From: Candidatus Aerophobetes bacterium Ae_b3b
GTDB lineage: Bacteria > Aerophobota > Aerophobia > Aerophobales > AE-B3A
Direction: 5' to 3'
Assembly (NCBI GenBank): GCA_005223085.1
Contig: NJBP01000002.1
Location: forward strand, 2,427-66,426
Length of the DNA: 64,000 bases
Shown: positions 33,956 to 62,569 of the stretch, in pieces
How positions within the stretch are numbered: the stretch's first letter is position 1
How the letters are laid out: every line of letters starts with the position of its first letter
Translations under genes and position numbers: made by a program
The notes under the pieces: model-generated
Told to the model about the DNA's origin: nothing
Seen by the model: only the letters and a program-made list of their open reading frames with translations
The model's database searches: none

Positions 33956-35803
33956 ATGAAAAATAGGAAAATAAGGGTAATTTTCCGACCAGAAAAAAAG
34001 GAGATTCTCACCTCTATTAAAAGTTCTCTTAAGGAAGTGATAAAAAGAGCAGGAATTAAGATAAATTTTCCTTGCGGCGGAAAAGGTATATGTGGAAAGT
34101 GTAAAGTTAAAGTCAAAGGGAAACTTTCTCCCTTAACTTCGGCTGAAAAAAAACATCTCCAGCCAGTAGAGAAAGATGTTCGCCTGGCTTGCCAGGCAGT
34201 TGTTGAAGGCAACATCGAGGTTGAGGTTTACCCTCTTTCCTTAATTTCCTTTCCCAAAATTTTAACTAATAGAATAAACAGGGAAATAAAAATCAAGCCT
34301 TTAATTAAGAAAACATACCTTTCTCTTCCTCCTCCCAGCCTTAAAGATCAAATTGCTGATCTATCCCGCCTGGAAAAATATCTAAAGGAAAGAGGAATTA
34401 GGTATCCTTTTGCTGATCTTGATTTAGTTAAAAAGCTCCCGAGGGTTATGCGGGAGGCAGATTTCAAGCTTACGGCCGTATTAAAGAAGCAAAGATTATT
34501 GACAGTGGAAAAAGGGGACACCAGAGGAAAAAATTTCGGAGTGGCTTTCGATGTAGGAACTACGACAGTGGTGGGGACACTAATAGACCTGGACACAGGA
34601 GAAGAGCTAGCTACACGCGCTCTCTTAAACCCACAGGCCTCGTTCGGAGAAGATGTGGTAAGCCGAATAGATTTTCTTCAATCACACCTGGAGGGGCTCA
34701 AGATTCTGCAGAAAAGGATAATCGGGGCAATAAACCGGATAATCCAGATGTTGAGCCGAGTAGGTGAAGTAAAAAGAGAAAACATTTATTTAGCTACCTT
34801 TGTAGGAAATACAGTCATGCAGCATCTTCTTTTGGGAGTGAATCCTACAAATTTAGCTCTTTATCCTTATGTCCCTGTGCTCAAGAGATCTATGGAGTTA
34901 AAAGCTAGTGATTTAGGGATTAGAATAAATCCCCAGGGGAGCTTATATTTTTTTCCTAATATCGCTGCTTTTGTAGGAGGAGATACAGTTGCAGTCATTC
35001 TGGCCACCTCCTTATTCGATGATAATAGTCAGAAGGTAAGATTAGCCATAGACATTGGGACAAACGGTGAGATTGTCCTGGCCAAAGGAAAAAAGTTGGT
35101 TTGCGCCTCTACGGCTGCTGGACCGGCCTTTGAAGGAGCGAGGATCTCCCAGGGAATGAGAGCAGAAAGAGGGGCTATAGAGAAGGTAAAACTTGAAGAA
35201 GGGAAGGTAGAGATAGGGGTGATAGGAGGGGGTAGGGCCAGGGGAATTTGTGGCAGTGGATTGATAGATGCCTCCAGCCAGCTTCTAAAGGAAGAGATCA
35301 TTGACAGCTCGGGATGGCTCAAGCCTTCTTCCAAAGCAAAAGAAAAATGGTCGAGTAGGATAACAAAGAAAAATAACCACAATGGTTTTCTTTTGGTGGA
35401 AAGAGAAAAAGCTCAAGATAGAATTCCTATTGTCCTCACCCAGAAAGATATAAGGGAGCTTCAATTGGCCAAGGGAGCTATTTGCTCGGGGATAAAAATT
35501 CTCCTCACTCGTCTTGAAGTAGAAAAAGGCGAAGTAGATGAGGTTCTTCTGGCTGGAGCATTTGGAAGCTACATTAACCCTGAAAGTGCTCATCTAATTG
35601 GTCTAATTCCCAATTTTCCTAAAGCTAAAGTGAGGAGTGTGGGTAATGCGGCAAGTCTGGGTGCAATTATGGCTCTTGTTTCAGAAGAGGACTGTAAGCA
35701 AGCAGAGAAAATTTCTGAAGGGGTAGATTATGTTGAGCTGGCCTCTTTCCCCGAGTTTCCGGATATCCTCACCCAGGCCATGAGATTTGGGAAGCAGGAT
35801 TGA
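33956..35803 (+). CDS. 2Fe-2S ferredoxin-domain / ASKHA-fold ATPase protein (RACo-like, DUF4445-type)
   Basis: N-terminal Cys cluster (FPCGGKGICGKCKV) followed by sugar-kinase/Hsp70/actin-like motifs (FDVGTTTVVGT, AIDIGTNGEIVLA). Confidence 0.5.
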   Translation: MKNRKIRVIFRPEKKEILTSIKSSLKEVIKRAGIKINFPCGGKGICGKCKVKVKGKLSPLTSAEKKHLQPVEKDVRLACQAVVEGNIEVEVYPLSLISFPKILTNRINREIKIKPLIKKTYLSLPPPSLKDQIADLSRLEKYLKERGIRYPFADLDLVKKLPRVMREADFKLTAVLKKQRLLTVEKGDTRGKNFGVAFDVGTTTVVGTLIDLDTGEELATRALLNPQASFGEDVVSRIDFLQSHLEGLKILQKRIIGAINRIIQMLSRVGEVKRENIYLATFVGNTVMQHLLLGVNPTNLALYPYVPVLKRSMELKASDLGIRINPQGSLYFFPNIAAFVGGDTVAVILATSLFDDNSQKVRLAIDIGTNGEIVLAKGKKLVCASTAAGPAFEGARISQGMRAERGAIEKVKLEEGKVEIGVIGGGRARGICGSGLIDASSQLLKEEIIDSSGWLKPSSKAKEKWSSRITKKNNHNGFLLVEREKAQDRIPIVLTQKDIRELQLAKGAICSGIKILLTRLEVEKGEVDEVLLAGAFGSYINPESAHLIGLIPNFPKAKVRSVGNAASLGAIMALVSEEDCKQAEKISEGVDYVELASFPEFPDILTQAMRFGKQD

Positions 35804-42501: not shown

Positions 42502-42894
42502 CTACTCAATCTTCACTATTACCTGGCGGTGGCGGGGGCCATCGAACTCACAGAAGTAGATGGACTGCCAGGTGCCCAGGACTAATTGGCCTTTCTCCAC
42601 GAATATAGTTTCAGAAGAGCCAACTAAAGATGCCTTTATATGAGCGGGGGAGTTTCCTTCCCGGTGTTGATAATCACCGCTCCAGGGGATGATCTTATCC
42701 AGTTGATTCAGTATATCTCTTCTCACACTGGGGTCAGCTCCTTCATTGATAAGGATCCCGGCCGTGGTATGAGGAACAAATACCTGGCAGGTCCCCTCTT
42801 CTACCCGGGCCTCTTTTACAATATCCTCTACTTGAGAACTGATGTCGATTAACTCTGACCGGGAATGGGTAGAAAGGGAAAATTTTTTTATCAC
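42502..42894 (-). CDS. YjbQ/UPF0047 family protein
   Basis: Strong similarity in pattern to E. coli YjbQ (HTTAGILINE, PAHIKASL, GTWQSIY). Confidence 0.8.
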   Translation of the reverse strand: MIKKFSLSTHSRSELIDISSQVEDIVKEARVEEGTCQVFVPHTTAGILINEGADPSVRRDILNQLDKIIPWSGDYQHREGNSPAHIKASLVGSSETIFVEKGQLVLGTWQSIYFCEFDGPRHRQVIVKIE

Positions 42895-42895
42895 T

Positions 42896-43363
42896 TTAGC
42901 CTCCTTCTTGTTTCATGAGCTTCTCGGGGGTAGTAATCCTTATGCGGGGATAACCGCTAATCAGATTATAGGCATTTATTCTTCTTTCTACCTGGGTTTT
43001 GACCAGATGTGCAAAATCCCAGCTAACAAATATATCCACTTTGTTTATCACTGCCAGTGCTAGATGTAGAGCATCGTTGAAGGCATTTGGGGGGATGATC
43101 TTTTCCTCGACATACCTTCTAGCTAGTTTCTCGGCCAAGGGGGAGACCTCCAGGGGAGGAAAATCACTAATTAAGGAGAGGATGGCCTCTCTTTTATCTT
43201 TAGTCTCCAGGGCCTTTATTTCATCAATGGTTAACCTTGAGATTATCACCCGGCAATGAGGAATCCGAACCTTCCACCACTGACGAGTGATCCTTCGGCG
43301 CTGCGGCTGGGAGGTCTCGCAGCAAGCAGAAGGAATGGAGGGATCAAGATAAACACTCTTCAT
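42896..43363 (-). CDS. PIN-domain (VapC-like) protein, no cognate antitoxin seen
   Basis: YLDPS N-terminal Asp plus the NDALHLALAVINKVDIFVSWDFAHL C-terminal block typical of PIN nucleases. Confidence 0.5.
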   Translation of the reverse strand: MKSVYLDPSIPSACCETSQPQRRRITRQWWKVRIPHCRVIISRLTIDEIKALETKDKREAILSLISDFPPLEVSPLAEKLARRYVEEKIIPPNAFNDALHLALAVINKVDIFVSWDFAHLVKTQVERRINAYNLISGYPRIRITTPEKLMKQEGG

Positions 43364-43366
43364 AGA

Positions 43367-44236
43367 TTAAAGTAGTCCATAGTCAGCCAGAGCCTTCTCC
43401 AGCCTTTCCTCATTCTCCTTTTTCATCCCATCCAGAGGAAGTCTCCACTCTGGCTCGATCATCCCCAGACGGGCCATGGCTGTCTTTACTGGAAGAGGAT
43501 TGGTCTCTATGAACATAGCCCGGGACAGGGGATATGTCTTGTAGTGAAGCTCCTTTGCTTTGCTGATATTTCTCTTTAAGTAAGCTTCCACCATTTGAGA
43601 CATCTCTCCGGGTAAGATATTCGCTAGCACTGATATTACTCCCACTCCACCAAGAGATAGGATGGGCAAAGTATGAGAATCATTTCCGGAAAGGACAGAA
43701 AAGTTAGGGTCGGATAAAGACATAATAGTTGATACCTGGTCCATATTACCACTCGCTTCTTTAATGCCTGCTATGTGGGTGAGCTTGCTTAATTTAGCCA
43801 CCAATGCTGCATCAATATTGACTCCAGTGCGTGAAGGGACATTATAGATAATAATAGGAAGGCCAATGGCCTCTAATTTCCGGTAATGAGCTTCCAGACC
43901 CTTAGGGGTGGGTTTATTGTAATAGGGAGTGATTACCAGGGCAGCATCTGCACCGGCTTCTTTGGCAAATTGAGTTAACTCTTCGGCCTCATGGGTGCTG
44001 TTGGAACCAGTCCCGGCGATTACCGGAACTCGATGATTGACCTCTTTCACAGTTATCTCTACCACTCGTTCGTGTTCATCAAAGGACAAAGTAGGTGACT
44101 CCCCTGTGGTTCCACAAGGAACTATTCCATCCACTCCTTTTTCCAGACAAAACCCGATGAGCTTGCGGAAGCTATCCTCATCTACCTCCCCCCCTTTGAA
44201 AGGGGTAACTATGGCTACATGACATCCTTTGAACAT
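43367..44236 (-). CDS. dapA: 4-hydroxy-tetrahydrodipicolinate synthase
   Basis: GTTGESPTLS motif, Lys region (IAGIKEASGN). Confidence 0.9.
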   Translation of the reverse strand: MFKGCHVAIVTPFKGGEVDEDSFRKLIGFCLEKGVDGIVPCGTTGESPTLSFDEHERVVEITVKEVNHRVPVIAGTGSNSTHEAEELTQFAKEAGADAALVITPYYNKPTPKGLEAHYRKLEAIGLPIIIYNVPSRTGVNIDAALVAKLSKLTHIAGIKEASGNMDQVSTIMSLSDPNFSVLSGNDSHTLPILSLGGVGVISVLANILPGEMSQMVEAYLKRNISKAKELHYKTYPLSRAMFIETNPLPVKTAMARLGMIEPEWRLPLDGMKKENEERLEKALADYGLL

Positions 44237-46398
44237 TGGCTAACCTCCCCTTCCCATTTTCCCTCATATACCACTTCTGCTTTACCTTCCAGGGAAACTT
44301 GAGTAAAATTATGGGTGCCTGATTTTTGAAAATAGACTTTCAGATCTCCCCCGCCGGTTTTTATCTTCACCGGAGAATTAAGGGCGTAGACTAGATTTGC
44401 TGCTAAAGCTGTAGCTACTGCTCCGGTACCACAACTTAGAGTCTCTGCCTCTACCCCTCTTTCGTAGGTTCTCATCCTCACGGTATCATCCTTTATTTCT
44501 GCAAAGTCAACATTGGTGCCCTCTGGCTGAAACTTTCCATGGTATCTTATTCGGGATCCCATTTTGGGAAGATCAATCTTTTCTACCTCCGGGACAAAGA
44601 GAACAAAGTGAGGTACTCCCGTATCCAGAAAATGGCCTGTGTAGGAGCCATCCCCCAGGTTTATCTCTAGGTTTAACTGAGAAATGGAAGGATCTTTCAT
44701 TCTTATGCGGACCCGATTCTTTTTTACCTGGGAGAAAATCTTTCCCGATAAGGTCTCAAAAGAACATTTTTCCCCCACAATTTTCTTAAGGTGGGCAAAT
44801 CTAGCTATGCATCGGGCTCCATTTCCACACATTGCCGGTTCGCTCCCGTCAGGATTGAAAATGCGCATTTTAAAATCAGCTACCCGAGATTTTTCCAGAA
44901 GTAGAACTCCATCTGCTCCAATGCCGATCTTTCTGGGACATATGGTTCTGGAAAATTCGGGTCCATTCTTGATAAACTGGGAGCGGTTATCAATGACGAT
45001 AAAGTCATTGCCACTTCCCTGTAACTTGGTGAAAGGGATGGGACCAGAAAGAGCTTTCTTTTCCCCCAGTGGGCGAGCTGAGCAAGATTTAGAACTCGAG
45101 GGAGAACCTCTAAAGGAGGAGAATAATTCCTCAGGGATGGACTCCTCCTTAATCAGATCTTTATAAGTTTCCCTCTCTCGAATTATCCACCACTGATCCT
45201 TCTTTACCAACACTTCTGCTGGTCTGGGTCGAGCATTGTAAGTAAAGCTCATGCTAAAGCAATAGGCTCCGGTATCCATGATAGCCAGATACTCTCCTTC
45301 CGTGATTTGAGGAAGAGGTCTTTCCCGAGCAAAGAAATCTCCCGACTCACAGACCGGACCTACTACATCTACCACTTCAGGGGAACCCGCCCCATGAGGT
45401 TCTTTTAGTTTTTTTATCTGGTGATAGGCTCCGTAAAGGGATGGTCTAATGAGATCGTTCATCCCCGCATCTACAATGATAAATCTCTTTTTCCCTCTAT
45501 TCTTTTTATAAAGTACCTGAGTGATTAAGACCCCGGCCGGTCCCACCAGGAATCTTCCTGGCTCAAGGATTAATTTTGCCCCGGTTTTCTTGATCAATGG
45601 ATAGATTTTTTCTGCTAGATCCATGATGTTTAAAGGGAGCTTTCCTTCCTCATAGCTAATGCCAAATCCCCCTCCCATATCCACATATTTTAGGTTCAGT
45701 CCCTTTTCTTTAAGCAGTTCAAGAAAATCCAGGATCTTTTCCAGAGCCCTAAGATAAGGCTGAAGGCTGGTTATCTGGGAGCCGAGATGAAAATGAATCC
45801 CTACTGGCTCCAAGAGGGGTGATTTTTTAACCTGGGAGTATAGTTTCTCTGCCTCATCAAAGTCAAGACCGAACTTATTTTCCCTCTTGCCGGTGGTGAT
45901 GTAGCGGTGAGTTTTCGGATCCACGTCGGGATTTATGCGTAAGGATATTTTGGCACTCTGGTTCAATTGGCGGCTGAGCTTTTCTATTAATCTTAACTCT
46001 CCTGGTGACTCCACGTTAAAGATAAAGATGTTCTCTCTTAGGGCGTATTCTATCTCCTCTTTATTTTTTCCGGGTCCCGCAAAAACTATTTTTTGAGGAG
46101 GGAATCCAGCCTGAAGCGCTTTGTATAGCTCTCCTCCCGAGAGAATGTCTGCTCCCGCACCTTCAGTAGCCAGAATTCGGCAAAGGGTAAGATTGGCATT
46201 GGCCTTTACTGAGTAGCAAATTAAGGGGGAGAGTTTGCTGAAGGCGTGGCAGACTTCCCGGTAACCATCGATTAGGCTATTATAGCTGTAAAGATAAAGA
46301 GGGGTCCCTACCTCCTCAGCCACCTGGCCAACTGGTACCTCTTCGCAGAAAAGCTGCCTGGCCTTATAGTGAAAATGGCTTTTTCTATTAGCTGGCAA
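44215..46398 (-). CDS. lysA-dapF: fusion protein: diaminopimelate decarboxylase (N) + diaminopimelate epimerase (C)
   Basis: N-terminal 430 aa has the Orn/DAP decarboxylase fold-III PLP signature (YSVKANANL, GGGFGISY, EPGRF, CESGD). C-terminal 290 aa has DapF motifs (MQGSGNDFIVID, FNPDGSEPAMCGNGARC, GTGAVA). Confidence 0.8.
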   Translation of the reverse strand: MPANRKSHFHYKARQLFCEEVPVGQVAEEVGTPLYLYSYNSLIDGYREVCHAFSKLSPLICYSVKANANLTLCRILATEGAGADILSGGELYKALQAGFPPQKIVFAGPGKNKEEIEYALRENIFIFNVESPGELRLIEKLSRQLNQSAKISLRINPDVDPKTHRYITTGKRENKFGLDFDEAEKLYSQVKKSPLLEPVGIHFHLGSQITSLQPYLRALEKILDFLELLKEKGLNLKYVDMGGGFGISYEEGKLPLNIMDLAEKIYPLIKKTGAKLILEPGRFLVGPAGVLITQVLYKKNRGKKRFIIVDAGMNDLIRPSLYGAYHQIKKLKEPHGAGSPEVVDVVGPVCESGDFFARERPLPQITEGEYLAIMDTGAYCFSMSFTYNARPRPAEVLVKKDQWWIIRERETYKDLIKEESIPEELFSSFRGSPSSSKSCSARPLGEKKALSGPIPFTKLQGSGNDFIVIDNRSQFIKNGPEFSRTICPRKIGIGADGVLLLEKSRVADFKMRIFNPDGSEPAMCGNGARCIARFAHLKKIVGEKCSFETLSGKIFSQVKKNRVRIRMKDPSISQLNLEINLGDGSYTGHFLDTGVPHFVLFVPEVEKIDLPKMGSRIRYHGKFQPEGTNVDFAEIKDDTVRMRTYERGVEAETLSCGTGAVATALAANLVYALNSPVKIKTGGGDLKVYFQKSGTHNFTQVSLEGKAEVVYEGKWEGEVSQCSKDVM

Positions 46399-47779
46399 TG
46401 GGATTTTCTCCTTCCTCCAGTTTCTCCCTGGCCAGTTTTATCTGTCTGGCCAGAGACTTTTTTCCGGTACCCCCGGTTGATTCCTTATTAAAAACAGATT
46501 CTTCCAGCTTTATCCTTTGGAAAACATCGGCCTCAAAAAGAGAAGAAATCTTTTGATAGTCCTTCAAGGCTAGATCCTCAAAACACTTATTTTCCTTTAA
46601 ACAGTGTTTAACCAATTTTCCCACCATTCCGTGAGCTTCTCTGAAAGGAACGCCTTTCTCTACCAGATAATCAGCCAGGTCCGTAGCCGCGAAAAAGCCC
46701 TGTTGGGCCTGTTTTCTCATATTCTCATGGTTTAGCTTTATCTTACCTATCATCCTGGGGTACAGTTTTAAACATCGCTTGATAATCTTCACCGCTTCAA
46801 ACAAAGAAGATTTGTCTTCCTGTAGATCTCGATTATAAGAGAGGGGAAGAGCCTTCATGGTGGTGAGAAGAGAAAAAAGATCCCCATAAACTCTGGCCGT
46901 TTTTGCCCGAGTGAGTTCGGCCACATCAGGATTCTTTTTCTGCGGCATGAGACTGGAGCCGGTGGTAAAGGCATCACTTATTTCAACAAAGGAGAAGGCA
47001 GGAGATGACCAGAGGATGAGATCCTCTGAGAGACGGGAAAGATGCATCATTAAAAGAGCCACACAACATAGAAATTCAATAATATAATCACGGTCACTCA
47101 CGGTGTCCATACTGTTCTTGGTAATGAGGGGAAAATTTAAAAGCCTGGCCACATAGGCTCTATCAATGGGCAAAGACGTTCCCGCCAGAGCCCCTACCCC
47201 CAGGGGAAGGACATTGACTCGGACATAGCAGTCTTTTAGCCGTAGTTTATCCCTTTGTAGCATCCAAAAATATGCCAGAAGGTGGTGAGAGAAAAAAACT
47301 GGCTGGGCATATTGTAGGTGCGTATAGCCGGGTAGGATAACCTGCCTGTTTTTTTCGGCAAATTCAAGGATCACCCTTTGGAAATTAGATATAAGATGGA
47401 GGATTTCACTTATTTCCTCTCTCAAGAAAAGTCTTTCATCCAGGGCTATCTGGTCATTTCTGGATCTTGCCGTGTGAAGTTTTTTGCCAGCCTCCCCGGC
47501 TCTTCTTATTACCTCCTCCTCTATAGCCATATGAATGTCTTCTTTTCCAGTGAAGTCAAGCTTTCCCTTATCTAAGTCTTTTTTTATCTCTTCCAGGGCC
47601 AGGATGATCTTTTGAGCCTCCTTTTCCTCGATGATTCCCACCTTGGAGAGCATTTTGACATGAGCAATGCTCCCGATTATATCGTGGGGGTAGAGTTTTC
47701 TATCTACGTCAATAGAGGAGGTGAAGTCCTTCACTAACTCATCGGTCTCCTCACTGAATCTTTCGGCCCAGAGGCTCAT
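46388..47779 (-). CDS. argH: argininosuccinate lyase
   Basis: Fumarate-lyase signature GSSLMPQKKNPD and ArgH-like N-terminus. Confidence 0.9.
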   Translation of the reverse strand: MSLWAERFSEETDELVKDFTSSIDVDRKLYPHDIIGSIAHVKMLSKVGIIEEKEAQKIILALEEIKKDLDKGKLDFTGKEDIHMAIEEEVIRRAGEAGKKLHTARSRNDQIALDERLFLREEISEILHLISNFQRVILEFAEKNRQVILPGYTHLQYAQPVFFSHHLLAYFWMLQRDKLRLKDCYVRVNVLPLGVGALAGTSLPIDRAYVARLLNFPLITKNSMDTVSDRDYIIEFLCCVALLMMHLSRLSEDLILWSSPAFSFVEISDAFTTGSSLMPQKKNPDVAELTRAKTARVYGDLFSLLTTMKALPLSYNRDLQEDKSSLFEAVKIIKRCLKLYPRMIGKIKLNHENMRKQAQQGFFAATDLADYLVEKGVPFREAHGMVGKLVKHCLKENKCFEDLALKDYQKISSLFEADVFQRIKLEESVFNKESTGGTGKKSLARQIKLAREKLEEGENPIAS

Positions 47780-47795: not shown

Positions 47796-48017
47796 TTATC
47801 TATGGCAAGGTGCACAGCTTGGTGCTCGGCAGGTAGAACAGCTACTCGTTCCACCTAGTGTGCCTTCTTTGGTTCTCCCGCTGATGAATCGAGGAAGAAG
47901 TTTTTTCAGTTGGGAGCTACCGCATTTTGCGCATTTAAGTTCATTTTCCTTACCCAGATTTACCAAGCGGGTAAACTCTTCCCCGCAACTGCCACATTTG
48001 TATCGATATAAAGGCAT
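47796..48017 (-). CDS. FmdB-family zinc-ribbon protein
   Basis: YRYKCGSCGEEF...CAKCGS CxxC-x-CxxC, 73 aa. Confidence 0.7.
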   Translation of the reverse strand: MPLYRYKCGSCGEEFTRLVNLGKENELKCAKCGSSQLKKLLPRFISGRTKEGTLGGTSSCSTCRAPSCAPCHR

Positions 48018-48167
48018 CTTAACCTACCTCTTCGGGCTTTCCCTCTCTATTAGCGCAATCTGGTGCTTAAGTTTAGTATAATTCGGTGGAGCTGTCAAAT
48101 TGACTCTCTTAGAAAAATTGCTTATTATGGTTTAGTGAGCTTATTGGAAACCAAAGTTTTTGAATGA

Positions 48168-49451
48168 TTGAAAAAAATGAGGAAAAGATTAACTTTAAGG
48201 TATAAAGACAAGGAGATTGAGGTAAAAATTCCCCTGGGGAATCTTATGTATGTTATAAAGCCAGAGGATCTTCCTGGACTAGAGAATGAGCAAAAATCTA
48301 TTAAGCACTCGCTAGAGAATCCCATAGGCTCAGCTCCTCTATCTCAACAAGTGAAAAAAGGAATGAAGGTGGTTATCATGGCAGATGATATTACTCGACC
48401 CACACCCCGAGAGAGGATTCTTCCGGCCCTCCTGGATGGATTAAATGAATCTGGCATACTTGATAGAGATATCACGGTGTTGATTGCTCTGGGAACTCAT
48501 CGTTATATGAGCAAAGAGGAGATAGAGCACTGTTTTGGGAAAAGGCTTACGGAAAGAGTAACCATCTTAAACCATGAGTGGAAGGCTAAAGCTAATCTTG
48601 TCTACCTGGGCTCAACTCCCAGGGGGATACCCGTCTCCATTAATAAGATCGCCCATGAGGCTGATTATTTAATTGGGGTAGGCAGTATTGTTCCTCATTC
48701 TCTTGCTGGTTATGGAGGAGGCGCTAAGATAGTCCAGCCTGGAATTTGTTCTTGGGAGACCACTGGGAAAACGCATCTTCTGGCGGTAGAAAGGAATGAC
48801 TTTCTTGAAGTTGCAGGAAATCCGGAAAATGAGGCCAGGTTGGAGATGGAGGAGGTGGCAAGAATTGCTGGATTAAATTTCATTGTTAATGTGGTACTCA
48901 ATGGCAAAGGAAGAATAGTCAAGGTAGTTTCCGGTGACCCAGTGAAGGCCCACAGAGAGGGAGTAAAAGTAGCCAGGAAAGTTTATGAGCAAAAAATACC
49001 CGAGTTAGCTGATGTGATTATAGCAAGTGCCTATCCAGCCAATATAGACTATTGGCAGGGTGCCAAGGCCCTCTCTTATGCCCAACACGGCCTTAGAGAA
49101 AAGGGCACGGTTATCCTTCTAGCTTCCTTCCCTGATGGCATCTCTCCCACGCACTCTGAGTTTGAAAAATACGGAGATAGGCCATATGAGGAGATAAAGC
49201 GGCTAATTAAAGAAAATAAGATTCAGGATCTCGTCTGTGCCTCTATTTTAGTTTGTCATGCGCTGGTTAGAGATCGCTGTGAAGTTATCTGCGTTTCGGA
49301 GGGACTGTCTATAGAACAAAAGGAAAGGCTTGGCTTCAGGCACGCCGATAGCCTGGATGAGGCATGGGAAATGGTCTTATCAAAGTATGGAAAAGGGGTG
49401 AAGATAGGGCTTATAGACCATGGAGGTGATATGCTGCCCAGACCTGGTTAA
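48168..49451 (+). CDS. lactate racemase (LarA)-like nickel-pincer enzyme family protein
   Basis: LarA_N hallmark DITRPTP, ALGTHR, GVGSIVPHSLAGYGGGAK. Confidence 0.65.
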   Translation: MKKMRKRLTLRYKDKEIEVKIPLGNLMYVIKPEDLPGLENEQKSIKHSLENPIGSAPLSQQVKKGMKVVIMADDITRPTPRERILPALLDGLNESGILDRDITVLIALGTHRYMSKEEIEHCFGKRLTERVTILNHEWKAKANLVYLGSTPRGIPVSINKIAHEADYLIGVGSIVPHSLAGYGGGAKIVQPGICSWETTGKTHLLAVERNDFLEVAGNPENEARLEMEEVARIAGLNFIVNVVLNGKGRIVKVVSGDPVKAHREGVKVARKVYEQKIPELADVIIASAYPANIDYWQGAKALSYAQHGLREKGTVILLASFPDGISPTHSEFEKYGDRPYEEIKRLIKENKIQDLVCASILVCHALVRDRCEVICVSEGLSIEQKERLGFRHADSLDEAWEMVLSKYGKGVKIGLIDHGGDMLPRPG

Positions 49452-49873: not shown

Positions 49874-50905
49874 TTGAAGGCGATTTTAAAAAATAAGGAG
49901 GCCGTAGGTTTTGATCTTGAGGAGATACCTGTACCTGAGCCCAAGTCCAAAGAGGTTCTGGTTAAAGTGAAAGCTGCTGCTATATGCGGCTCGGATTTGA
50001 AAATTTTTAAGTGGATACCCTGGTGTAAAAATGTGGTTAAGTCTTTGCCCTTTATTCCAGGGCATGAATGTGCCGGTGAGGTGGTGGAGGTTGGAAAGGA
50101 GGTTAAAAGGATAAAAGTAGGGGATAAAGTAGCAGCGGAAACCCATATTACCTGTGGAAAATGCTGGCAATGTCGGCATGACCGCTCTCACACCTGCCAG
50201 AATATGGAACTTTTTGGTCACACTGTAAACGGCTGTTTTGCTGAATACTGTATAATACCCCTGGTCTCTACCAGGAGGGTGCCTGAGGATCTACCTTTTG
50301 AGAAGGGATGTCTTCTCGAACCAATGGGAATCCCCTTGAGGGCTGTATACGAAGGAGAAGTAGAGGGAGATTCAGTAGTGGTTATAGGATGTGGGCCTAT
50401 CGGGCAATTTGCGGTAGGGATTTCGAGGATAAAAGGAGCCGAAAAAATTATCGCTACCGATATTAACGAGAAAAGGCTAAACCTAGCCAGGAGAATGGGA
50501 GCGACTCATCTGGTTAATGCTCAAAAAGAATCTCTCGTAGATAGAGTTTTATCCCTGACCAACGGAAATGGAGCAGGAGTGATAATCGAGGCTTCGGGTG
50601 ATGCTCAAGCCTTAGAGAAAGCATTTAATTACTTAAGGACTGGGGGAAAGTTATTTATGATAGGTCATCCTGAGGAGCTTTTAAAGATTGATGGATCTCC
50701 TCAGATTATTCTCAAGGAAGCCAGAATCAGAGGACTGTTCGGAAGGGAAATATGGAGAACCTGGGAGATAGCCGAGAATCTACTTTCCGCGGGAAAACTC
50801 AATATAGATCCTATAATTACTCATAAATTTTCCTTAGAAGATTTCGAGAAGGCCTTCGATATAGCAATTTCGGGCCAAGGATGCAAGATACTTCTCATTC
50901 CTTGA
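49874..50905 (+). CDS. zinc-dependent medium-chain alcohol/polyol dehydrogenase
   Basis: GHECAGEVVEVG zinc signature and a structural-zinc Cys cluster (CGKCWQCRHDRSHTC). Confidence 0.85.
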   Translation: MKAILKNKEAVGFDLEEIPVPEPKSKEVLVKVKAAAICGSDLKIFKWIPWCKNVVKSLPFIPGHECAGEVVEVGKEVKRIKVGDKVAAETHITCGKCWQCRHDRSHTCQNMELFGHTVNGCFAEYCIIPLVSTRRVPEDLPFEKGCLLEPMGIPLRAVYEGEVEGDSVVVIGCGPIGQFAVGISRIKGAEKIIATDINEKRLNLARRMGATHLVNAQKESLVDRVLSLTNGNGAGVIIEASGDAQALEKAFNYLRTGGKLFMIGHPEELLKIDGSPQIILKEARIRGLFGREIWRTWEIAENLLSAGKLNIDPIITHKFSLEDFEKAFDIAISGQGCKILLIP

Positions 50906-50926
50906 TAGCTTTAAAGGAGTAATTCA

Positions 50927-51874
50927 ATGGCTGTTCTTATTACGGGAGGTTACGGACAATTAGGGTCCTGGCTTACCTACCAGTTTGCTGGGGTGGGAAA
51001 AGAGGTTATAGTTCTCGATGTGGTAGGTAAAGACCTTGATTATCTTAAGGAAATAAAAGATAAGATTAGATTTGTTCGGGCAAGTGTGCTCGATTTCCCA
51101 AAACTGGTGGAAGTATTTATCCGGTACAAGGATAAAATTGAGGGAATTATACATACAGTAGCGATAACTGCCGACCCCTCTCTTGAGGGAAACCCTCACC
51201 AGGCTCTTATGATAAATCTCACCGGGACAGTCAATATGCTCGAGCTGGCTAGACTCTTTAAAATTAAGAAATTTCTCTTTGCTAGCTCAGGAGCAGTATA
51301 TGGAGAGGTAAAAGACAACCCTTCTGAACTTACTCATCCTCTTCATCCTAGTGACTTATATGGCGCCAGCAAGGTGGCCGGGGAGCTCATTGGTCAGCAA
51401 TATGAGCATCACTATGGTCTTGATTTTCGGAGTGCTCGTCTTTACTTTTTCTTTGGTCCGGGAAGGCTTCCTTCCCAGCAAACTGAGCTGTTTAAAAATC
51501 TTCTAGGGCCTCTTGAGGGTCTTCCTGGTCTAAAACTGGAGAAGGGTGCCGATCAGAAACTGGGATTTACTTACGTTAAAGATATCGCCTATGGAACTTA
51601 TCTTCTCTACCAGGCTGAAAATCTCAAGCACAAATCGGTAAATATCTCTTCCGAACAACCGATTTCTTTCCTCCAGATGGTGAGCTTAGCTCAAAAGTAT
51701 AGTGATAAACCTACTCAGGTGGAGATAGGCCCGGGCAAGCTCTTTCCTCGAGGAGAGACTTTGGATATCTCTCTTGCCAAAGAGGAGCTTGGATTTTATC
51801 CCCAATATACTGTGGAGGAAGGTATGCGCGAATACGCCCGGTGGGTAAAGAAAAATGCGATGAGGAAGGATTAG
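50927..51874 (+). CDS. NAD-dependent epimerase/dehydratase (extended SDR)
   Basis: ITGGYGQLGSWL Rossmann motif and YGASK catalytic motif. Confidence 0.8.
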   Translation: MAVLITGGYGQLGSWLTYQFAGVGKEVIVLDVVGKDLDYLKEIKDKIRFVRASVLDFPKLVEVFIRYKDKIEGIIHTVAITADPSLEGNPHQALMINLTGTVNMLELARLFKIKKFLFASSGAVYGEVKDNPSELTHPLHPSDLYGASKVAGELIGQQYEHHYGLDFRSARLYFFFGPGRLPSQQTELFKNLLGPLEGLPGLKLEKGADQKLGFTYVKDIAYGTYLLYQAENLKHKSVNISSEQPISFLQMVSLAQKYSDKPTQVEIGPGKLFPRGETLDISLAKEELGFYPQYTVEEGMREYARWVKKNAMRKD

Positions 51875-51887
51875 AGAGGACGATAAG

Positions 51888-53441
51888 ATGGCTAGATATG
51901 TCATTGGCGGTGATGTGGGCTCATCCGGGTACAAAGCAGTCCTTCTGGATATGGAAACCGGTGAGGTTAAGGCAACTGCTAGTGTGGTTTATGAAGTGAA
52001 CTGGGTTAAGCCAAGCTGGGCTCAACAAGATCCTATTCTCTGGAAAAGAGCATTTATAAAGGCAACTAAAAGGCTATTAAAAAATGCAGGAATTGCAAGT
52101 AAAGAAGTTGAGGGGATTGCTTTTTCCGGTCAGCAGCACGGAGCAGTGGTAGTGGATAAGGATAATCAACCTTTGTATGAAGCCATTTTATGGTGTTGTC
52201 AAAGGAGTGCTCAGGAATGTAAGGATATAGAAGAAAGTGTAGCTAAAGAGACTGCCAGAACAGATGCTTATGTTGAAGAGATTGGTATGCATGCTATGCC
52301 TGGTTTTCAAGGACCAAAGGTGCTCTGGATCTACAGGCACCTACCTCAGGTTTATAAAAGGACAGAACAACTTTTATTTCCCAAGGACTGGCTAAAGACA
52401 GAGATCAGCCGAGAAAAAAGGTGGGCAACAGAACTTTCTGATCTTTCTGGCTCGGGCTATCTAAGGCTAGATGGCACATTGTCGGAATTAGTAATGAAGG
52501 TTATGAAATTAAATTCTCGCTGGGTACCGGAGATTCTTCCTTCTACTTCTCAAGTAGGTACTGTTTCAGAGGGAATAGCTAAAAAGACAGGCTTAGATGT
52601 AGATACCAGAATCTTCGGTGGAGGAGGAGATAATCCGTGTAGTATGCTAGGCAATAATGCCTATCTTCTAGAGAGTGTAGGTACCTCAGGTACCTTTTCC
52701 GTCAGGGTTAAACAGCCCATCGTGGATGGAACCCTACATCCTTTCATTCTTCCTGACGATAGATTTAATCATCCCCGGGGACCAAGACAGCCCTTGCACT
52801 GTATTATTGATGCGGCCAGTGCCATAGATTATATCGCCGAGAAGGTTTATGGAAAAGGTAGGTTTACTTACGAGATGCTTAACAGAGTTGCCAGAAATAC
52901 GCCGGCAGGCTCCAATGGCAAAATCATTATTCCTTTTATCCATGGACAAAGGGTTCCCTATGCGCCTCAGGGTAAACTCTACATCAAGGGATATGATCCG
53001 ACTAAGGATAAAAAGGAAGATTTGATTCGTGCGGTAATGGAGGGAGTAGCCTATGCTATGAAGTATGGCTTTGAGCTCTTACAAAGAGGTATGCAAAAGC
53101 AGAAAATAGCTGAGCCGAAAAGAATTACCATTACCGGGGGCGGTTCTAAAGGCGAAGAAGCTAGCCAGATAAGATCGGATGTTTACGGCAAGGAGCTTAT
53201 CAATCCTCATACTGAGGGTGCCGCGGTTGGTGCTGCCTACATTGCTGCAGCAGGAGTGCTTGATGAGCCAGTAGAAGAGGTATCAGCCAGGTTATTTGAA
53301 AGAGGGATTCAACTCAGCCTGCAAAAACCCACTTTTGTAATTCCCCGGGATGAAAACATCAGGCTGTATGAAGAGGGCTATCAAAGATATTTAGAAATTC
53401 TTGAAGAGGCTATTGAAAATAACTTTGAGCAAAAATGGTAG
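51888..53441 (+). CDS. FGGY-family carbohydrate kinase (xylulokinase-like)
   Basis: VIGGDVGSSGYKAV N-terminus, FGGY_N/C pattern, ITGGGSKG. Confidence 0.8.
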   Translation: MARYVIGGDVGSSGYKAVLLDMETGEVKATASVVYEVNWVKPSWAQQDPILWKRAFIKATKRLLKNAGIASKEVEGIAFSGQQHGAVVVDKDNQPLYEAILWCCQRSAQECKDIEESVAKETARTDAYVEEIGMHAMPGFQGPKVLWIYRHLPQVYKRTEQLLFPKDWLKTEISREKRWATELSDLSGSGYLRLDGTLSELVMKVMKLNSRWVPEILPSTSQVGTVSEGIAKKTGLDVDTRIFGGGGDNPCSMLGNNAYLLESVGTSGTFSVRVKQPIVDGTLHPFILPDDRFNHPRGPRQPLHCIIDAASAIDYIAEKVYGKGRFTYEMLNRVARNTPAGSNGKIIIPFIHGQRVPYAPQGKLYIKGYDPTKDKKEDLIRAVMEGVAYAMKYGFELLQRGMQKQKIAEPKRITITGGGSKGEEASQIRSDVYGKELINPHTEGAAVGAAYIAAAGVLDEPVEEVSARLFERGIQLSLQKPTFVIPRDENIRLYEEGYQRYLEILEEAIENNFEQKW

Positions 53442-53454: not shown

Positions 53455-54678
53455 TTATTCTGGAGGTTGAGAACCCTGAGATTTTAGCTGGGCGGCTTTT
53501 TCATGGTGATCCGCTGCCTGTAAATACATTCCTTTCTCTGCGTACAGGTCCCCTAGTAGCTCATGGGCCTGAGCATCCTGCGGGTTAATCTGTATTACCT
53601 TCCTCAAGTTTTGTTCAGCAAGATCGTACTTTTTCTCTTCAAAATAAATAAGGCCTAAATTGAAATAGGCATCTGGATTGTCGGGATGATGCTGGGTCTC
53701 TTTCTCATAACACTCAATGGCTTGCTCGTTTTTACCTTGCTTGTAGTAAATACTACCCAGATGAAAGTAGGTGTCCTGAAAAACAGGTTTCAGTTTTAGG
53801 ACCTCTTGAAACTCCTCAATTGCTTGTGCGTACTTTTGTAGCTGGACGTAGGTGTGAGCTAAATTATAATGGAAGAAAGGCTCATCTGGTTTTATTTTTA
53901 CTGCTTTTTCCAGCTCGGCTTCTGCTTTAGGATACTCTCCTTGTTCCATATAAATGTTAGCCAGATAGGCATGGGCATAACTATTTTTGGGTTCCAGCTC
54001 TATCACTATCTGCAACTCCTTCTCTGCTTTTTCATAGTTTTTCTGTTCAAGATGGACCCTTCCTAAATAAAGATGAGAATCTACGTGTTTAGGGTTCTGA
54101 GTGACCGCTTTCTGGAGTGATTCCAAAGCCTTGTCCCAACGATGGAGCTTAAAATAACTCATTCCTAAACTCGTATACGCTCTCTTTAAATCAGGGTTAA
54201 GATCAATAGCTTTTTCAAAGTTCTCCATCGCTTTTTCGTATTCCCCCTGCCAGTAAAGGATTTGGCCTAAATTGTACCAGGCTAGAGCATCGGAAGGATT
54301 AATGGTTATTTCTTTCTCATATTCAGTTATAGCTTTTTCAGGCAGTTGCTGATAGGAAAATAGGTTTCCCAATAGCAAGTGAATCCCTGGATAGGCTGGT
54401 TTAAGTTTTACGCAGACCATAAGCTCCTCAGTAGCTTCCTCGTATTCTTTGAGTTCGAGGTCGGTGAGAGCTAAGTTATAGTGGGCTTCAAAGTTGTCCG
54501 GCTCCAGTTTAACAGCCTGCTCGAAGGCTTGCCTAGCTTTGGTGTACTCCTTCAAGTGATAATAATCCAGTCCGAGCTTAATATATGGTGCCGAGTTTTG
54601 TTCTGGATATGCCAATCCTGAAGAAAATAAGATTATCCCCAGGCCTATCAGAAATGAAAACACTACTATTTTCTTCAA
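53455..54678 (-). CDS. tetratricopeptide-repeat protein with signal peptide
   Basis: About 10 consecutive 34-aa TPR units (AxxYxNLGxxYxxxGxYxxA). Confidence 0.8.
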   Translation of the reverse strand: MKKIVVFSFLIGLGIILFSSGLAYPEQNSAPYIKLGLDYYHLKEYTKARQAFEQAVKLEPDNFEAHYNLALTDLELKEYEEATEELMVCVKLKPAYPGIHLLLGNLFSYQQLPEKAITEYEKEITINPSDALAWYNLGQILYWQGEYEKAMENFEKAIDLNPDLKRAYTSLGMSYFKLHRWDKALESLQKAVTQNPKHVDSHLYLGRVHLEQKNYEKAEKELQIVIELEPKNSYAHAYLANIYMEQGEYPKAEAELEKAVKIKPDEPFFHYNLAHTYVQLQKYAQAIEEFQEVLKLKPVFQDTYFHLGSIYYKQGKNEQAIECYEKETQHHPDNPDAYFNLGLIYFEEKKYDLAEQNLRKVIQINPQDAQAHELLGDLYAEKGMYLQAADHHEKAAQLKSQGSQPPE

Positions 54679-56147
54679 TCTCTATCCTCCTTGATCAAAG
54701 TAGATTCCTCTAGCTGATAAACAATTTGTAGTTCTACAGTGAGAGAATTTTTCTGCCAGGAAGAGGGAAAAGGAGGAAAAGGTGAGGTATCTTTTATCAG
54801 TTTTTCTGCGGCGCGATTGAGCACTTCGTAACTACAGGGAGACGAAACTTCAGTCTTTATGACTCTGCCACTGGAATTAATCGTGAATCTGACCTTTATT
54901 CTTCCTTTCCATCCGTGTTGCCTGGCAACCGATGGATATTTTTTGTTGGCGTTGATTAACTTTCGAGTCTTTTGTGCATATTCTCTTAGCCAAAGGCTCT
55001 CGGTAAGGCGCTCTGTATCTTCCTTCAGGATCCTGATTTCTTCTCGGTGAAAATCTGGCTCAGTGGTCAGAGGTGAGAATTTCTTTTTTTCTACGATGGG
55101 GGAATAACCACGAGTCCTTGGCTGCACAATCGGATCTAAGGAAGTGGACAAAATTTCGCGCCTAACCTTTTCCTTAGCTTTACCGAGGGATATTCTCGGG
55201 AGCGGATTTGGTTCCCTCAAAGCGGCTTTTTTATAAGGGAAAACTCGTGAAGCTCTTGAGATTATGATTTCGGGTCGTATACCTTCTTCTGTGATTCTTA
55301 CCTGGTGAGGATAGTAGTTCTTTTCACTTTTCCTCATAGGGAAAGCGTTAAGGTTCCTTTCCGTGGGTAAATAAGAAGCTGACATAGGTTCCGATTTCTT
55401 TTCCTCGAAAAGAAGACCCAGGAAAGCCAGGCTTCCCTCCCTTTGTCTTAGCGGTAGAGTCTGGTTTAAACCTACAGGCTCAGTAGCTAAACTCGGGGTA
55501 TGATCGGCCAACCTTTTTTGGCTCAAGTTTTCCTCCCTCGCAAGGTAAACGCTTGCTTCAATTTTCCTGAGGAGAGGAGATTTTTCCACTTGGGTTAAGG
55601 GTGAGAAAGACGAGGAGATGGCGGCTTTGTCAACTGAAAGATTCACTCCCGGGATCTTACTCACCATCTTGGATGTTCCTTCTCTGAGAGGGTTAGATTC
55701 CATGGTCGATTCACGTACCTTTGTTGGTGGGGAAAAAAGGGATAGAGATTTTCTTTTCCTGTGGTTAGATGTCTCTTCGGGAGAAAGGATTCTCTCCTGA
55801 GATCTCAGATTGGAAGAAATAGAGGGCTTTATCGTGCGAATCGAAGATGGCTTGAGTAGCTCCCTATTCTTTCTTTTGAATGCAATGGTTAAGGGAGAGA
55901 TTATGGATTTTCCCGATGATTCCCTCAGGTGATGATTTATTTTAGGCAAAGAGATAATGTAGTCTACTTTTATACTTTTGACATATTTGACAGACTTCGG
56001 GGGAGAAAGGAAAATGGGGGCTGCAAGAAGTCCCAAATGAATGAGTATGGAAATGAGAAGAGAAAATGTCTCTACTTTCAATTTACCCACTCTATTTTTC
56101 TTACCAGTCCCTAATTTCCCCCTTTTTACTTTCTTTCTAGAGGCCAA
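54675..56147 (-). CDS. TonB-family energy transducer (N-terminal TM anchor, Pro/Ser-rich linker, TonB_C domain)
   Basis: TM helix LLISILIHLGLLAAPIFL, low-complexity linker, C-terminal TonB fold (GRIKVRFTINSSGRVIKTEV). Confidence 0.65.
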   Translation of the reverse strand: MASRKKVKRGKLGTGKKNRVGKLKVETFSLLISILIHLGLLAAPIFLSPPKSVKYVKSIKVDYIISLPKINHHLRESSGKSIISPLTIAFKRKNRELLKPSSIRTIKPSISSNLRSQERILSPEETSNHRKRKSLSLFSPPTKVRESTMESNPLREGTSKMVSKIPGVNLSVDKAAISSSFSPLTQVEKSPLLRKIEASVYLAREENLSQKRLADHTPSLATEPVGLNQTLPLRQREGSLAFLGLLFEEKKSEPMSASYLPTERNLNAFPMRKSEKNYYPHQVRITEEGIRPEIIISRASRVFPYKKAALREPNPLPRISLGKAKEKVRREILSTSLDPIVQPRTRGYSPIVEKKKFSPLTTEPDFHREEIRILKEDTERLTESLWLREYAQKTRKLINANKKYPSVARQHGWKGRIKVRFTINSSGRVIKTEVSSPCSYEVLNRAAEKLIKDTSPFPPFPSSWQKNSLTVELQIVYQLEESTLIKEDRD

Positions 56148-58023
56148 TTTTCATCCCCAGATTGATTCTTCTACCCGGCATGGGGTAATCCCTGAACACC
56201 TGGTATGACTCATCCAGTAAATTCTCCCCCGTGGCAAAAACCTCAACTTTCTTGGTTAACCTTTGAGAAAGCCTGGCGTTAAGGAGATTATAGCCCTTTA
56301 ATTTCTGGGTGTTTTCTCTATTGGTATATTGCTCACTTACCTTCTCTGTCTCTATGCGGATGCCTAATCCAAAATCTGTTTCATATTCCAGACTCAAGCC
56401 CATTTTGTATTCAGGTGTATATGCCAGATAATTTCCTTTATACTCCTCACCCTCATCCTTAGCTTGTTGATAGAGATAATTTAATCCGAGAGATAACCTC
56501 GAGGTCAACTGTAATCTGAGCTCCGATTCTATACCCTGGTTATGGGCCTTGTCTACATTGGTAGCCTGCCAGTGCCAGGGTGAAATCTCCACCCAGCTAA
56601 TTAGCTGCTCAGTTTTTCTATCAAACCAACTTATTCTGGCTAGTAGAGGCAGGCTAAACTGATGCTCCAATCCCAACTCATAGCCTCTAGATTTTTCTGG
56701 TTTAAGGTCTTCATTTCCAAATAGACCCATTCCCCATCCCCAATCCTCATACCAGTAAAGTTCATTTACCGTAGGGGGCCTGAAAGCCTGACCATAGGAA
56801 GCACGAAGGCGGGTATTGTGTCCTAAAAGGTAAAGGAGACTCACTCGAGGACTGCATTGGGAAGCGTAGGCGGAGGGATTGTCGTACCTCAGTCCCGGGA
56901 GGAGGACTAAGCGGGAAGAAGGATTTATCTCGTCCTGAAGATAAAGAGAAATCGTATCTAACTTCCGGGGGTCACCAATTCTGGAAGCTCCATCAATGGT
57001 TGTGACTTTGACCCGATCCTGTCTTAGCTCCAAACCTATCGTGGGGAAATGTCTTCCCCAGGGGAGGCTATACTGCATTTGCACACCACTGGCAAGATTT
57101 TCTGTTGTATCTTTCATCGGACCGCCCCAGGCCTCAGGGTCTTGGTAACATATTTCATATTGTTCGATAAAAGTTTTAGTAAGAAGACGAGCTCCTCCTT
57201 TTAAATCCTTGTGGTAGGAAAGATCCAAGAAGTTCCTTTTGTCCTCTTCCCGGGCACCAGGAGTGGGATAAGTGGTGGAGCCGGGAACCCCGCTGTCTCG
57301 ATGAGAGTAACCAGCCAATAAAGAGAACCCCGATGAATCATTGACTTCATAAGTGAGCTTGGCTGTCGCATGTGTCTCGTTACAGCCACTATTTTCTCTG
57401 TCTCCGGCTGAGTCTCCCAGCTTAGCGGTGAGAAAGTATCCAGTCTTGTCTAGCTTTCCACCATGGGTAAGAGTGTATCCACTGGTTTCATAGGTGCCAT
57501 AGGAAGCTCTGATCTCGGTCTGCCTCTTTTCAGGAGCAGGTTTGGTAATGATATTGATAACGCCGCTCAGGGCGTTAGCTCCGTAGAGAGAGGAGAAGGG
57601 ACCTCTAACTACCTCGATCCTTTCGATGTTTTGTACCGGAAGGAAACCCAGATCTATGGTTCCGGAAGCGGCAGGATTTAATTCTCGTCCATCCATTAAA
57701 ACTAAGACTTGATCTGCGGCAGAACCGCGAATATGTGCTGTAGTCAGTGAACCCGGACCCCCGTAAGCGGTCACTCTCATTCCCGCTACATTCTCTAATG
57801 CCTGAGCCACCGTGGAAGCACCGGTTTGTTCGATCTCTTTTTCAGTGATGACCGTGGTGCTCACCGGAACATCCTTTAATAAATGGGGAGTACGGGTAGC
57901 GGTAATAACTATTTTTTCTAGCTCTAGGATGCTTTCTTCTTTATTTTCCTCAGCCTCTGTCCAACCGGAAAAGATAAGCACTAGACCCAAGGTTACCATA
58001 AGTAATCTGCTAAATGAAGACAT
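56137..58023 (-). CDS. TonB-dependent outer-membrane receptor (probable corrinoid transporter BtuB-like)
   Basis: Signal peptide, plug domain with TonB box region, C-terminal beta-barrel ending with aromatic residue. Preceded by a cobalamin riboswitch. Confidence 0.8.
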   Translation of the reverse strand: MSSFSRLLMVTLGLVLIFSGWTEAEENKEESILELEKIVITATRTPHLLKDVPVSTTVITEKEIEQTGASTVAQALENVAGMRVTAYGGPGSLTTAHIRGSAADQVLVLMDGRELNPAASGTIDLGFLPVQNIERIEVVRGPFSSLYGANALSGVINIITKPAPEKRQTEIRASYGTYETSGYTLTHGGKLDKTGYFLTAKLGDSAGDRENSGCNETHATAKLTYEVNDSSGFSLLAGYSHRDSGVPGSTTYPTPGAREEDKRNFLDLSYHKDLKGGARLLTKTFIEQYEICYQDPEAWGGPMKDTTENLASGVQMQYSLPWGRHFPTIGLELRQDRVKVTTIDGASRIGDPRKLDTISLYLQDEINPSSRLVLLPGLRYDNPSAYASQCSPRVSLLYLLGHNTRLRASYGQAFRPPTVNELYWYEDWGWGMGLFGNEDLKPEKSRGYELGLEHQFSLPLLARISWFDRKTEQLISWVEISPWHWQATNVDKAHNQGIESELRLQLTSRLSLGLNYLYQQAKDEGEEYKGNYLAYTPEYKMGLSLEYETDFGLGIRIETEKVSEQYTNRENTQKLKGYNLLNARLSQRLTKKVEVFATGENLLDESYQVFRDYPMPGRRINLGMKIGL

Positions 58024-58224
58024 TGCCTTCTCCCTTCCTTTTATTCTCTGTATCTAACGGTGCTAACCTACATGCCTCATCCTTCTGAGGGTACTCCTCA
58101 GTTATTCAAAAAGCTACTTCCTATAAAAAACCCCAGCCTTCCCGATAAAGAAAGCTGGGGTTCTATTGTTCGACAAAAACCCTCATTACCTTTTATGCGA
58201 AGAAGGAGGGTACACACACATAGG

Positions 58225-58425
58225 CAGGTCTTCTGGCTCCCGGTGACCTCAATCTTGAGTTTTTCTACTCTCCGCGCCTTCCCATCTCACTGGCTCATCA
58301 AAATTACTACATCAAGAGACAGTGGCCTAGTGCGGATTTCGCTACCGGTTACAGCGGCGCAACCGCGAGGGTTTCTCACCCTCTTCCCTTTTAAGCCCAC
58401 ATAGGGCACCTATATACTTCAACCA
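58225..58425 (-). promoter_or_regulatory. cobalamin (B12) riboswitch
   Basis: Minus-strand RNA: GGUGCC...AAAAGGGAA...GGUGAGAAACCC...GCUGUAACCGGUAGCG...GCCACUG (B12 box)...GGGAAGGCG. Lies in the leader of the TonB-dependent receptor. Confidence 0.8.
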
Positions 58426-58509
58426 GGACATTAAAGAGCAGATATTTTATAATACTGTATCAAGAATTTTTGTCAAATTGAACGTTCCAAGATTCCCTCA
58501 TTTAGTGAA

Positions 58510-59871: not shown

Positions 59872-59911
59872 TTTATGCCTGTCTTTTCAAAGTATAGCTA
59901 GCTTCGTCATC

Positions 59912-60712: not shown

Positions 60713-60773
60713 AGCTTTTTCTCCTCCTAGTTAGTTCCCAGTTCATAATTTACAAAATAATATTGTATTTAGC

Positions 60774-61183: not shown

Positions 61184-61217
61184 AATCACACAAGTTAATC
61201 CGGAGACGAATAATAGG

Positions 61218-62557: not shown

Positions 62558-62569
62558 GGAGACGATTTG

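Follow-up and report, generated by a model that had tools for sequence, protein, structure and literature searches.

Natural fusions among the enzymes of the diaminopimelate (DAP) pathway have been described, namely of aspartate kinase with the decarboxylase LysA and, in oomycetes, of DapB with DapL (PMC2705460), and the genes for LysA and the epimerase DapF are known from lysA-dapF operons (PMC1480536). Here, we analysed a stretch of 64,000 nucleotides (in the following, the window) from contig NJBP01000002.1 of Candidatus Aerophobetes bacterium Ae_b3b (GCA_005223085.1, positions 2,427 to 66,426), in which a single gene, lysA::dapF, unites a complete diaminopimelate decarboxylase with a complete diaminopimelate epimerase. 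Very probably, lysA::dapF is a genuine gene with two functions, inherited vertically and of stop-loss origin, and its product would carry two independent activities and no sealed channel between them.

Chemistry, catalytic residues and folds of the fusion are those of the stand-alone enzymes, i.e., LysA of A. aeolicus (2p3e) and M. jannaschii (1twi) as well as DapF of H. influenzae (1gqz, 2gke) and P. aeruginosa (8qzy). The gene order of lysA-dapF operon systems matches the domain order of the fusion, whereas a stop codon separates the genes there and a disordered linker of 35 amino acids the domains here. Bifunctional aspartate kinase/LysA proteins of the Xanthomonas/Legionella type (NF006515) likewise join LysA to a lysine-pathway enzyme, but carry an N-terminal aspartate kinase and therefore differ in partner and order; the window protein is not a member of this family, as its score of 224.8 bits falls below the cut-off of 802 and its match is confined to the LysA part (500-859) of the model. 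Nor does it belong to the bifunctional DapF/glutamate racemases of Chlamydia (NF038284; 169.7 bits, cut-off 350), in which a DapF scaffold accommodates two functions within one domain and without any fusion. The oomycete DapB–DapL protein also fuses consecutive enzymes of the DAP pathway, but concerns other steps, eukaryotic hosts and an independent origin. Closest are Aerophobetes entries in UniProt, which share the LysA–DapF architecture as orthologous members of the same clade and bear the automatic name “Multifunctional fusion protein” (UniRef100_A0A523S143, about 70% identical; UniRef100_A0A662DI34, about 52%); the difference lies in the linker, which comprises 35 amino acids in the sub-clade of the window protein and about 10–20 in most of the clade. 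NCBI and JGI label such fusions merely as “diaminopimelate decarboxylase”, and full-text literature searches found no paper describing or testing a LysA–DapF fusion. The architecture is already present in databases, but under-annotated and uncharacterised.

The listing of open reading frames (ORFs) gives one uninterrupted ORF of 727 amino acids on the minus strand (44215..46398), starting with TTG and ending with TAG, which bears out the single LysA-DapF frame proposed in a preliminary description of this DNA. Two NCBIfam equivalog models are matched end to end, namely TIGR01048 (lysA) with 511.3 bits (cut-off 297.9; amino acids 12-419, model 5-416/417) and TIGR00652 (DapF) with 254.2 bits (cut-off 114.65; amino acids 455-715, model 2-268/270), and both enzymes are therefore complete. 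Pfam assigned Orn_Arg_deC_N (57-285), Orn_DAP_Arg_deC (to 377) and, from 456 onwards, two stretches of DAP_epimerase, and the best sequence matches in the PDB were found at 9e-123 for LysA (2p3e) and at 5e-36 for DapF (9mro), so that the match to both enzymes is far beyond chance.

On the level of individual residues, K65, H204, GGG242-244, EPGR279-282, CESGD350-354 and Y379 of the LysA domain are invariant in two alignments, one of 25 and one of 49 fused proteins; among these residues we take to be the Schiff-base lysine for pyridoxal 5′-phosphate (PLP), the glycine-rich phosphate loop, the EPGR motif, the Cys/Glu of CESGD provided by the partner subunit, and the tyrosine of the GAY motif. 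The catalytic set of a fold-type III PLP-dependent decarboxylase, which had been noticed in the N-terminal part before, is thus intact, and the domain would most likely decarboxylate meso-DAP to L-lysine and CO2. The C-terminal third had in turn been described as a complete DapF, and here, too, the motif NPDGSEPAMCGNGARC and both catalytic cysteines accompany the full-length TIGR00652 match. Cys524 (MCGNG; NPDGSEPAMCGNGAR) and Cys656 (CGTG) are invariant in the same two alignments and align with the cysteines of 1gqz (Cys73 and Cys217, H. influenzae numbering) and likewise with 2gke, and the DapF signature N-x-D-G-S-x4-C-G-N-G-x-R is also invariant among the fused homologues. Judged by these residues, the domain would most likely epimerise LL-DAP to meso-DAP.

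An AlphaFold2 model, built from the alignment of 49 fused proteins, shows two confident domains, with a mean predicted local distance difference test score (pLDDT) of 83.7 and a predicted template modelling score (pTM) of 0.58. Over amino acids 10-410 the pLDDT is mostly above 90 and the TIM-barrel plus beta-sandwich fold of LysA is evident; in Foldseek comparisons this part reached a target-normalised TM-score of 0.93-0.94 (root-mean-square deviation 1.7-1.8 Å) with Aquifex LysA 2p3e, and the C-terminal part one of 0.85 with P. aeruginosa DapF 8qzy. Amino acids 421-450 fall below a pLDDT of 50 and, together with the pTM value, this leaves the inter-domain geometry undefined. Sequence and Foldseek searches revealed no PDB chain covering both a LysA and a DapF domain.

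The Ser/Pro-rich sequence SSFRGSPSSSKSCSARPLGEKK, reported earlier as the linker, is found at about nt 45061-45126 and thus within amino acids 420-454. Across homologues, the length of the linker varies from 2 to 42 amino acids. In the sub-clade of the window (84-98% identity, about 10 clusters) a frame of 35 (or 32) codons is kept, and the linker shows 51-69% identity in comparisons in which the domains reach 86-95%. Comparison with the 87%-identical protein of locus L088 gave ratios of nonsynonymous to synonymous substitution rates (dN/dS) of 0.21 for the LysA domain, 0.19 for the DapF domain and 0.66 for the linker, from which it follows that the domains are under selection and the linker is relaxed. 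Purifying selection consequently holds both domains, with the linker representing a nearly unconstrained flexible tether. A separate internal start of DapF within the linker was considered and rejected, since in the window sequence none of the codons ATG, GTG and TTG occurs in frame from the end of LysA to the conserved GSGNDF motif.

A database search for further LysA-DapF fusions, as recommended in the preliminary description, covered 5.8 billion proteins and returned fused clusters for 52 of the 120 best matches, at identities from 98% down to 44%, with the fused proteins coming from four independent sources (JGI, NCBI, ENA and Logan assemblies). Among the top 150 matches from 1.84 billion representative proteins, 10 clusters were fused over their full length (family of 6128 at E<1e-30), and loci L086, L088 and L089 show the fused gene in its genomic context. 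The fusion is rare, making up about 10 of the several thousand clusters of LysA/DapF formed at 50% identity, but recurrent. All named members of the main fused clade are Candidatus Aerophobetes/Aerophobota, a phylum without cultivated members.

The history of the fusion was addressed by neighbour-joining trees of LysA (57 sequences, 200 bootstraps) and, likewise with bootstrapping, of DapF. In the LysA tree, a 29-member clade with 100% bootstrap holds all main fused proteins. The closest unfused LysAs (426 amino acids, 73-75% identical) nest with the group of the window protein in a 16-member sub-clade, again with 100% bootstrap; they end in ELFSS followed by the stop, precisely at the beginning of the window linker, and some of them retain linker-like residues (ELFSSSKSKLR and stop, compared to ELFSSSKDSS... 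in the fused protein P0012). Their locus L001 displays the synteny argH–lysA–dapA–PIN-like, without dapF. The DapF tree is congruent with the LysA tree, with 81% and 82% support for the corresponding clades, and places stand-alone DapFs, which share 59-63% identity with the window domain, as a 100%-supported clade at the matching position inside the fused clade. These stand-alone genes sit in another operon, dapF–aminotransferase–guaA (L084, 5001-6957; L087, 2031-4050), where dapF overlaps a class I/II aminotransferase gene upstream of guaA. The aminotransferase gene is probably dapL, and the arrangement suggests that dapF moved into a dapF–dapL pair after fission. From the congruent trees, we infer that genomes with the unfused LysA are also those with the relocated DapF.

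A further locus, L083 (GCA_030610745.1, JAUWRC010000007.1, 5913-8173), has the order argH–lysA–dapF–dapA with proteins of 461 and 292 amino acids, respectively. Its lysA, which possesses a linker-like tail, and dapF overlap by ATGA, and the former linker DNA is rearranged, with indels, in comparison with the fused sister P0012, as would be seen in a natural re-split of the fusion. The most parsimonious scenario for these trees and loci would be one ancient fusion at the base of the clade and, later on, two or more fissions, of which one involved relocation of dapF; the Aerophobota fusion thus appears to be inherited vertically. Outside of the main clade, fused proteins occur among unfused relatives (Dissulfurimicrobium P0072, P0077, P0079, P0081, P0082, Ca. 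Bilamarchaeum P0335, Lokiarchaeota/Promethearchaeota P0370), and these fusions in Thermodesulfobacteriota and archaea are best read as independent events.

How such a gene could arise is indicated by GTDB species genomes, which were scanned using the alignment of fused proteins. Among the matches listed, at least about 40 loci carry a separate lysA followed by dapF at a distance of 9-100 nt, in Thermodesulfobacteriota, Omnitrophota, Nitrospirota, Pseudomonadales and archaea, and in at least 10 of these about 40 loci both genes share the same frame with a single stop codon between them. In the same scan, 40 matches to both domains had first counted as candidate fusions and were rejected when a check for stops showed separate adjacent genes; the matches listed contained neither a true fusion nor a close relative of the window. 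Since in-frame pairs with one intervening stop exist, a single stop loss suffices for the architecture of the window gene. The ancestor would have been an operon with adjacent, translationally coupled lysA and dapF, and loss of the stop between them would have yielded the fused gene, an origin which would also explain the domain order. That this order is reversed relative to the pathway, as pointed out in the preliminary description, is correct; it is, however, not odd, as it equals the common lysA→dapF operon order (PMC1480536). Caution is therefore advisable, as a reversed domain order can simply mirror operon order, and in the present case it appears to do so rather than to follow pathway logic.

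The fused protein would run both reactions independently, with DapF converting LL-DAP to meso-DAP and LysA converting meso-DAP to L-lysine and CO2. Members of the LysA family are obligate homodimers with active sites shared between the subunits, and in such a LysA homodimer two DapF domains would come to lie close to each other. The main effect of the fusion would then be a fixed 1:1 co-expression and a co-localisation of both enzymes, encoded within the argH–lysA::dapF–dapA block, and a sealed substrate channel is probably absent.

An alternative option is a channelling enzyme, with DapF domains that are docked on the LysA dimer, hand meso-DAP directly to the decarboxylase and thereby commit flux to lysine apart from the peptidoglycan pool. 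LysA and DapF indeed catalyse consecutive steps, the fusion was kept across a phylum-level clade, and in some homologues a linker of only 2-7 amino acids would force the domains into contact. The window linker, in contrast, is long, predicted to be disordered and nearly unconstrained, the AlphaFold model offers neither a confident inter-domain geometry nor a predicted interface, and the clade would have lost the fusion at least twice, in one case with dapF moving to another operon. Moreover, diderm peptidoglycan synthesis normally requires free meso-DAP for MurE; TonB and a TonB-dependent receptor encoded in the window imply a diderm envelope, and such a diderm-like cell probably needs free meso-DAP as well. 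The earlier expectation that the fusion would channel LL-DAP to lysine is therefore unsupported, and we regard direct transfer as unlikely. A variable disordered linker and repeated fission fit a nearly neutral fusion of the co-expression type better than obligate channelling. Similarly doubtful is the more specific picture that Aerophobota cells have no DapF and no LysA besides the fusion, and that the fusion forms a LysA-dimer core with DapF docked over the decarboxylase sites, partitioning meso-DAP between lysine and peptidoglycan; if true, such a docked complex would be a model of channelling that is natural and evolvable, and sister lineages would supply fused, re-split and relocated versions for comparison.

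Several points weigh against a bifunctional enzyme with the history outlined above. The neighbour-joining trees have weak support at several deep nodes, and number and direction of fusions and fissions are uncertain outside of the well-supported clades. No second lysA or dapF, and no dapF–aminotransferase–guaA context, was found within the 64-kb window, to which the search for paralogues was confined, and a further dapF or lysA may lie elsewhere in the genome. Finally, an active-site motif of DapF at amino acids 594-597 (44605-44616) reads GVPH, where every solved DapF that we aligned has GNPH, and the window protein thus lacks the asparagine (Asn157 in H. influenzae) that constitutes a secondary, non-defining DapF feature.

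This substitution, together with the fact that other racemases reuse the DapF fold (e.g., the O-ureido-serine racemase 7vdy), could speak for a DapF-like domain that serves as a regulatory DAP-binding module or as another PLP-independent racemase, the true DapF being encoded elsewhere. Of the 186 nearest homologues, however, 177 carry GVPH, among them stand-alone enzymes from Omnitrophota, Syntrophales and NC10, which argues for a large DapF subfamily without the GNPH asparagine and for GVPH as a trait of this subfamily rather than of the fusion; the variant was consequently rejected as a sign of neofunctionalisation or lost function. Furthermore, the DapF equivalog is passed (254 vs. 115 bits) and the exception model for DapF/glutamate racemases failed (170 vs. 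350 bits), both catalytic cysteines and the DapF signature are invariant, the domain evolves under a dN/dS of 0.19, and the search of 5.8 billion proteins found no stand-alone DapF above 63% identity. A function other than epimerisation is accordingly very improbable.

An artefact, i.e., separate adjacent lysA and dapF genes that look united in this contig owing to a miscalled stop or to an indel from sequencing or assembly, could be suspected because adjacent separate lysA→dapF genes are common and frequently just one stop apart, and because the close relative L083 really has two overlapping genes, but this is effectively refuted and scarcely conceivable, as the linker frame is shared by about 10 clusters of 84-98% identity (one 98% cluster alone comprising 68 member sequences) and the fusion by at least 40 other clusters from JGI, NCBI, ENA and Logan, as the window linker lacks an in-frame start for DapF, and as the linker gathers substitutions in the homologue comparison without any stop or frameshift. 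The artefactual fusion, whose exclusion had been demanded at the outset, is thereby excluded by an uninterrupted frame kept in dozens of independent assemblies.

The genuine, bifunctional lysA::dapF is embedded in a block transcribed from the minus strand in the order argH → lysA::dapF → dapA (Table 1). The overlap with dapA given in the preliminary description agrees with our coordinates, and argH overlaps the fusion as well. Because Shine-Dalgarno-like sites lie within the 3′ end of the respective preceding gene, the three genes look translationally coupled. The C-terminal tail of the fusion is missing from some near homologues (720- and 717-amino-acid forms). argH holds an equal position in L088, L089, L083 and L001, and the synteny Zn-ribbon–argH–lysA::dapF–dapA–(small ORF)–YjbQ is kept in L088 (87% protein identity) and L089 (53%). 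Near the block, Rfam searches of the window at the gathering threshold revealed neither a lysine riboswitch nor any other RNA element.

Table 1. Features of the lysA::dapF locus in the 64,000-nucleotide window (window positions).
Feature	Position	Strand	Remarks
lysA::dapF fused ORF	44215..46398	-	ORF listing, Pfam, NCBIfam; architecture kept in >50 clusters
LysA domain, amino acids 1-419	45142..46398	-	fold-type III PLP-dependent meso-diaminopimelate decarboxylase; TIGR01048
Inter-domain linker, amino acids 420-454 (35 amino acids)	45037..45141	-	Ser/Pro-rich, predicted disordered
DapF domain, amino acids 455-715	44254..45036	-	PLP-independent diaminopimelate epimerase; TIGR00652
C-terminal tail, amino acids 716-727 and stop	44215..44253	-	spans ribosome-binding site and start of dapA
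argH (argininosuccinate lyase), upstream gene	46388..47779	-	Pfam Lyase_1 and ASL_C2; overlaps fusion by 11 nt
dapA (4-hydroxy-tetrahydrodipicolinate synthase), downstream gene	43367..44236	-	Pfam DHDPS, 311 bits; overlaps fusion by 22 nt
Shine-Dalgarno-like GGAGGAAGGAG	46408..46418	-	9 nt upstream of the TTG of the fusion, within the 3′ end of argH
Shine-Dalgarno-like GGGAAGGGGAGG	44244..44255	-	7 nt upstream of the dapA ATG (44236), within the 3′ end of the DapF domain
Small zinc-ribbon protein gene, first in block	47796..48017	-	homologues in L088 and L089 called Zn_ribbon_8
Promoter-like TTGACA-17-TAAACT	48098..48070	-	consensus match only; 5′ of the zinc-ribbon gene
YjbQ-family gene, conserved neighbour downstream of dapA	42502..42894	-	homologues in L088 and L089 carry PF01894 YjbQ

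Directly 3′ of dapA lies a small ORF of 155 amino acids (42896-43363, minus strand) without a Pfam match at E<1e-5, whose counterparts in L001 and L086 show only weak or faint matches to PIN domains. On the other side, a LarA-like gene (Lar_N/DUF2088; 48168-49451, plus strand) diverges from the Zn-ribbon–argH–lysA::dapF block and is followed by genes for a Zn-dependent dehydrogenase, an NAD-epimerase and an FGGY kinase (49874-53441). The window also harbours dnaA (32018-33361, plus strand), followed by a gene for a RACo-type reductive activator of corrinoid proteins (33956-35803, plus strand), and the neighbourhood dnaA–RACo–gmk–yicC–folK–…–dapA recurs in the homologous contigs L083 and L089; the presence of dnaA places the fusion locus in the core chromosome, close to the replication origin.

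The sole Rfam matches of the window are two cobalamin riboswitches (RF00174), one at 58206-58428 (minus strand, 106 bits) upstream of a pair of genes for a TonB-dependent receptor and TonB (56137-58023 and 54675-56147, both minus strand), and one at 62559-62743 (plus strand, 90 bits) upstream of a CobU gene (62777-63340, plus strand), so that the region looks like one for B12 uptake and salvage. Between both riboswitches (58510-62147, minus strand), genes for a B12-binding radical SAM protein (58510-59871), a pterin-binding protein (59912-60712) and a protein with a homocysteine S-methyltransferase domain (61218-62147) may represent split methionine-synthase-like or corrinoid methyltransferase modules.

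LysA and DapF are textbook antibacterial targets, and the fusion of consecutive enzymes is a classic sign of functional linkage. The case described here is an ordinary kind of pathway-enzyme fusion, with no new chemistry and no new type of system, and in LysA–DapF two well-known enzymes appear in an architectural variant that is new and uncharacterised. Given the label “diaminopimelate decarboxylase” at NCBI, metabolic reconstructions of Aerophobota and of other metagenome-assembled genomes can easily record dapF as absent. Moreover, this one clade offers a natural series of adjacent genes, fused genes, re-split genes and a relocated dapF, which could be used for testing whether joining both enzymes brings any kinetic benefit.

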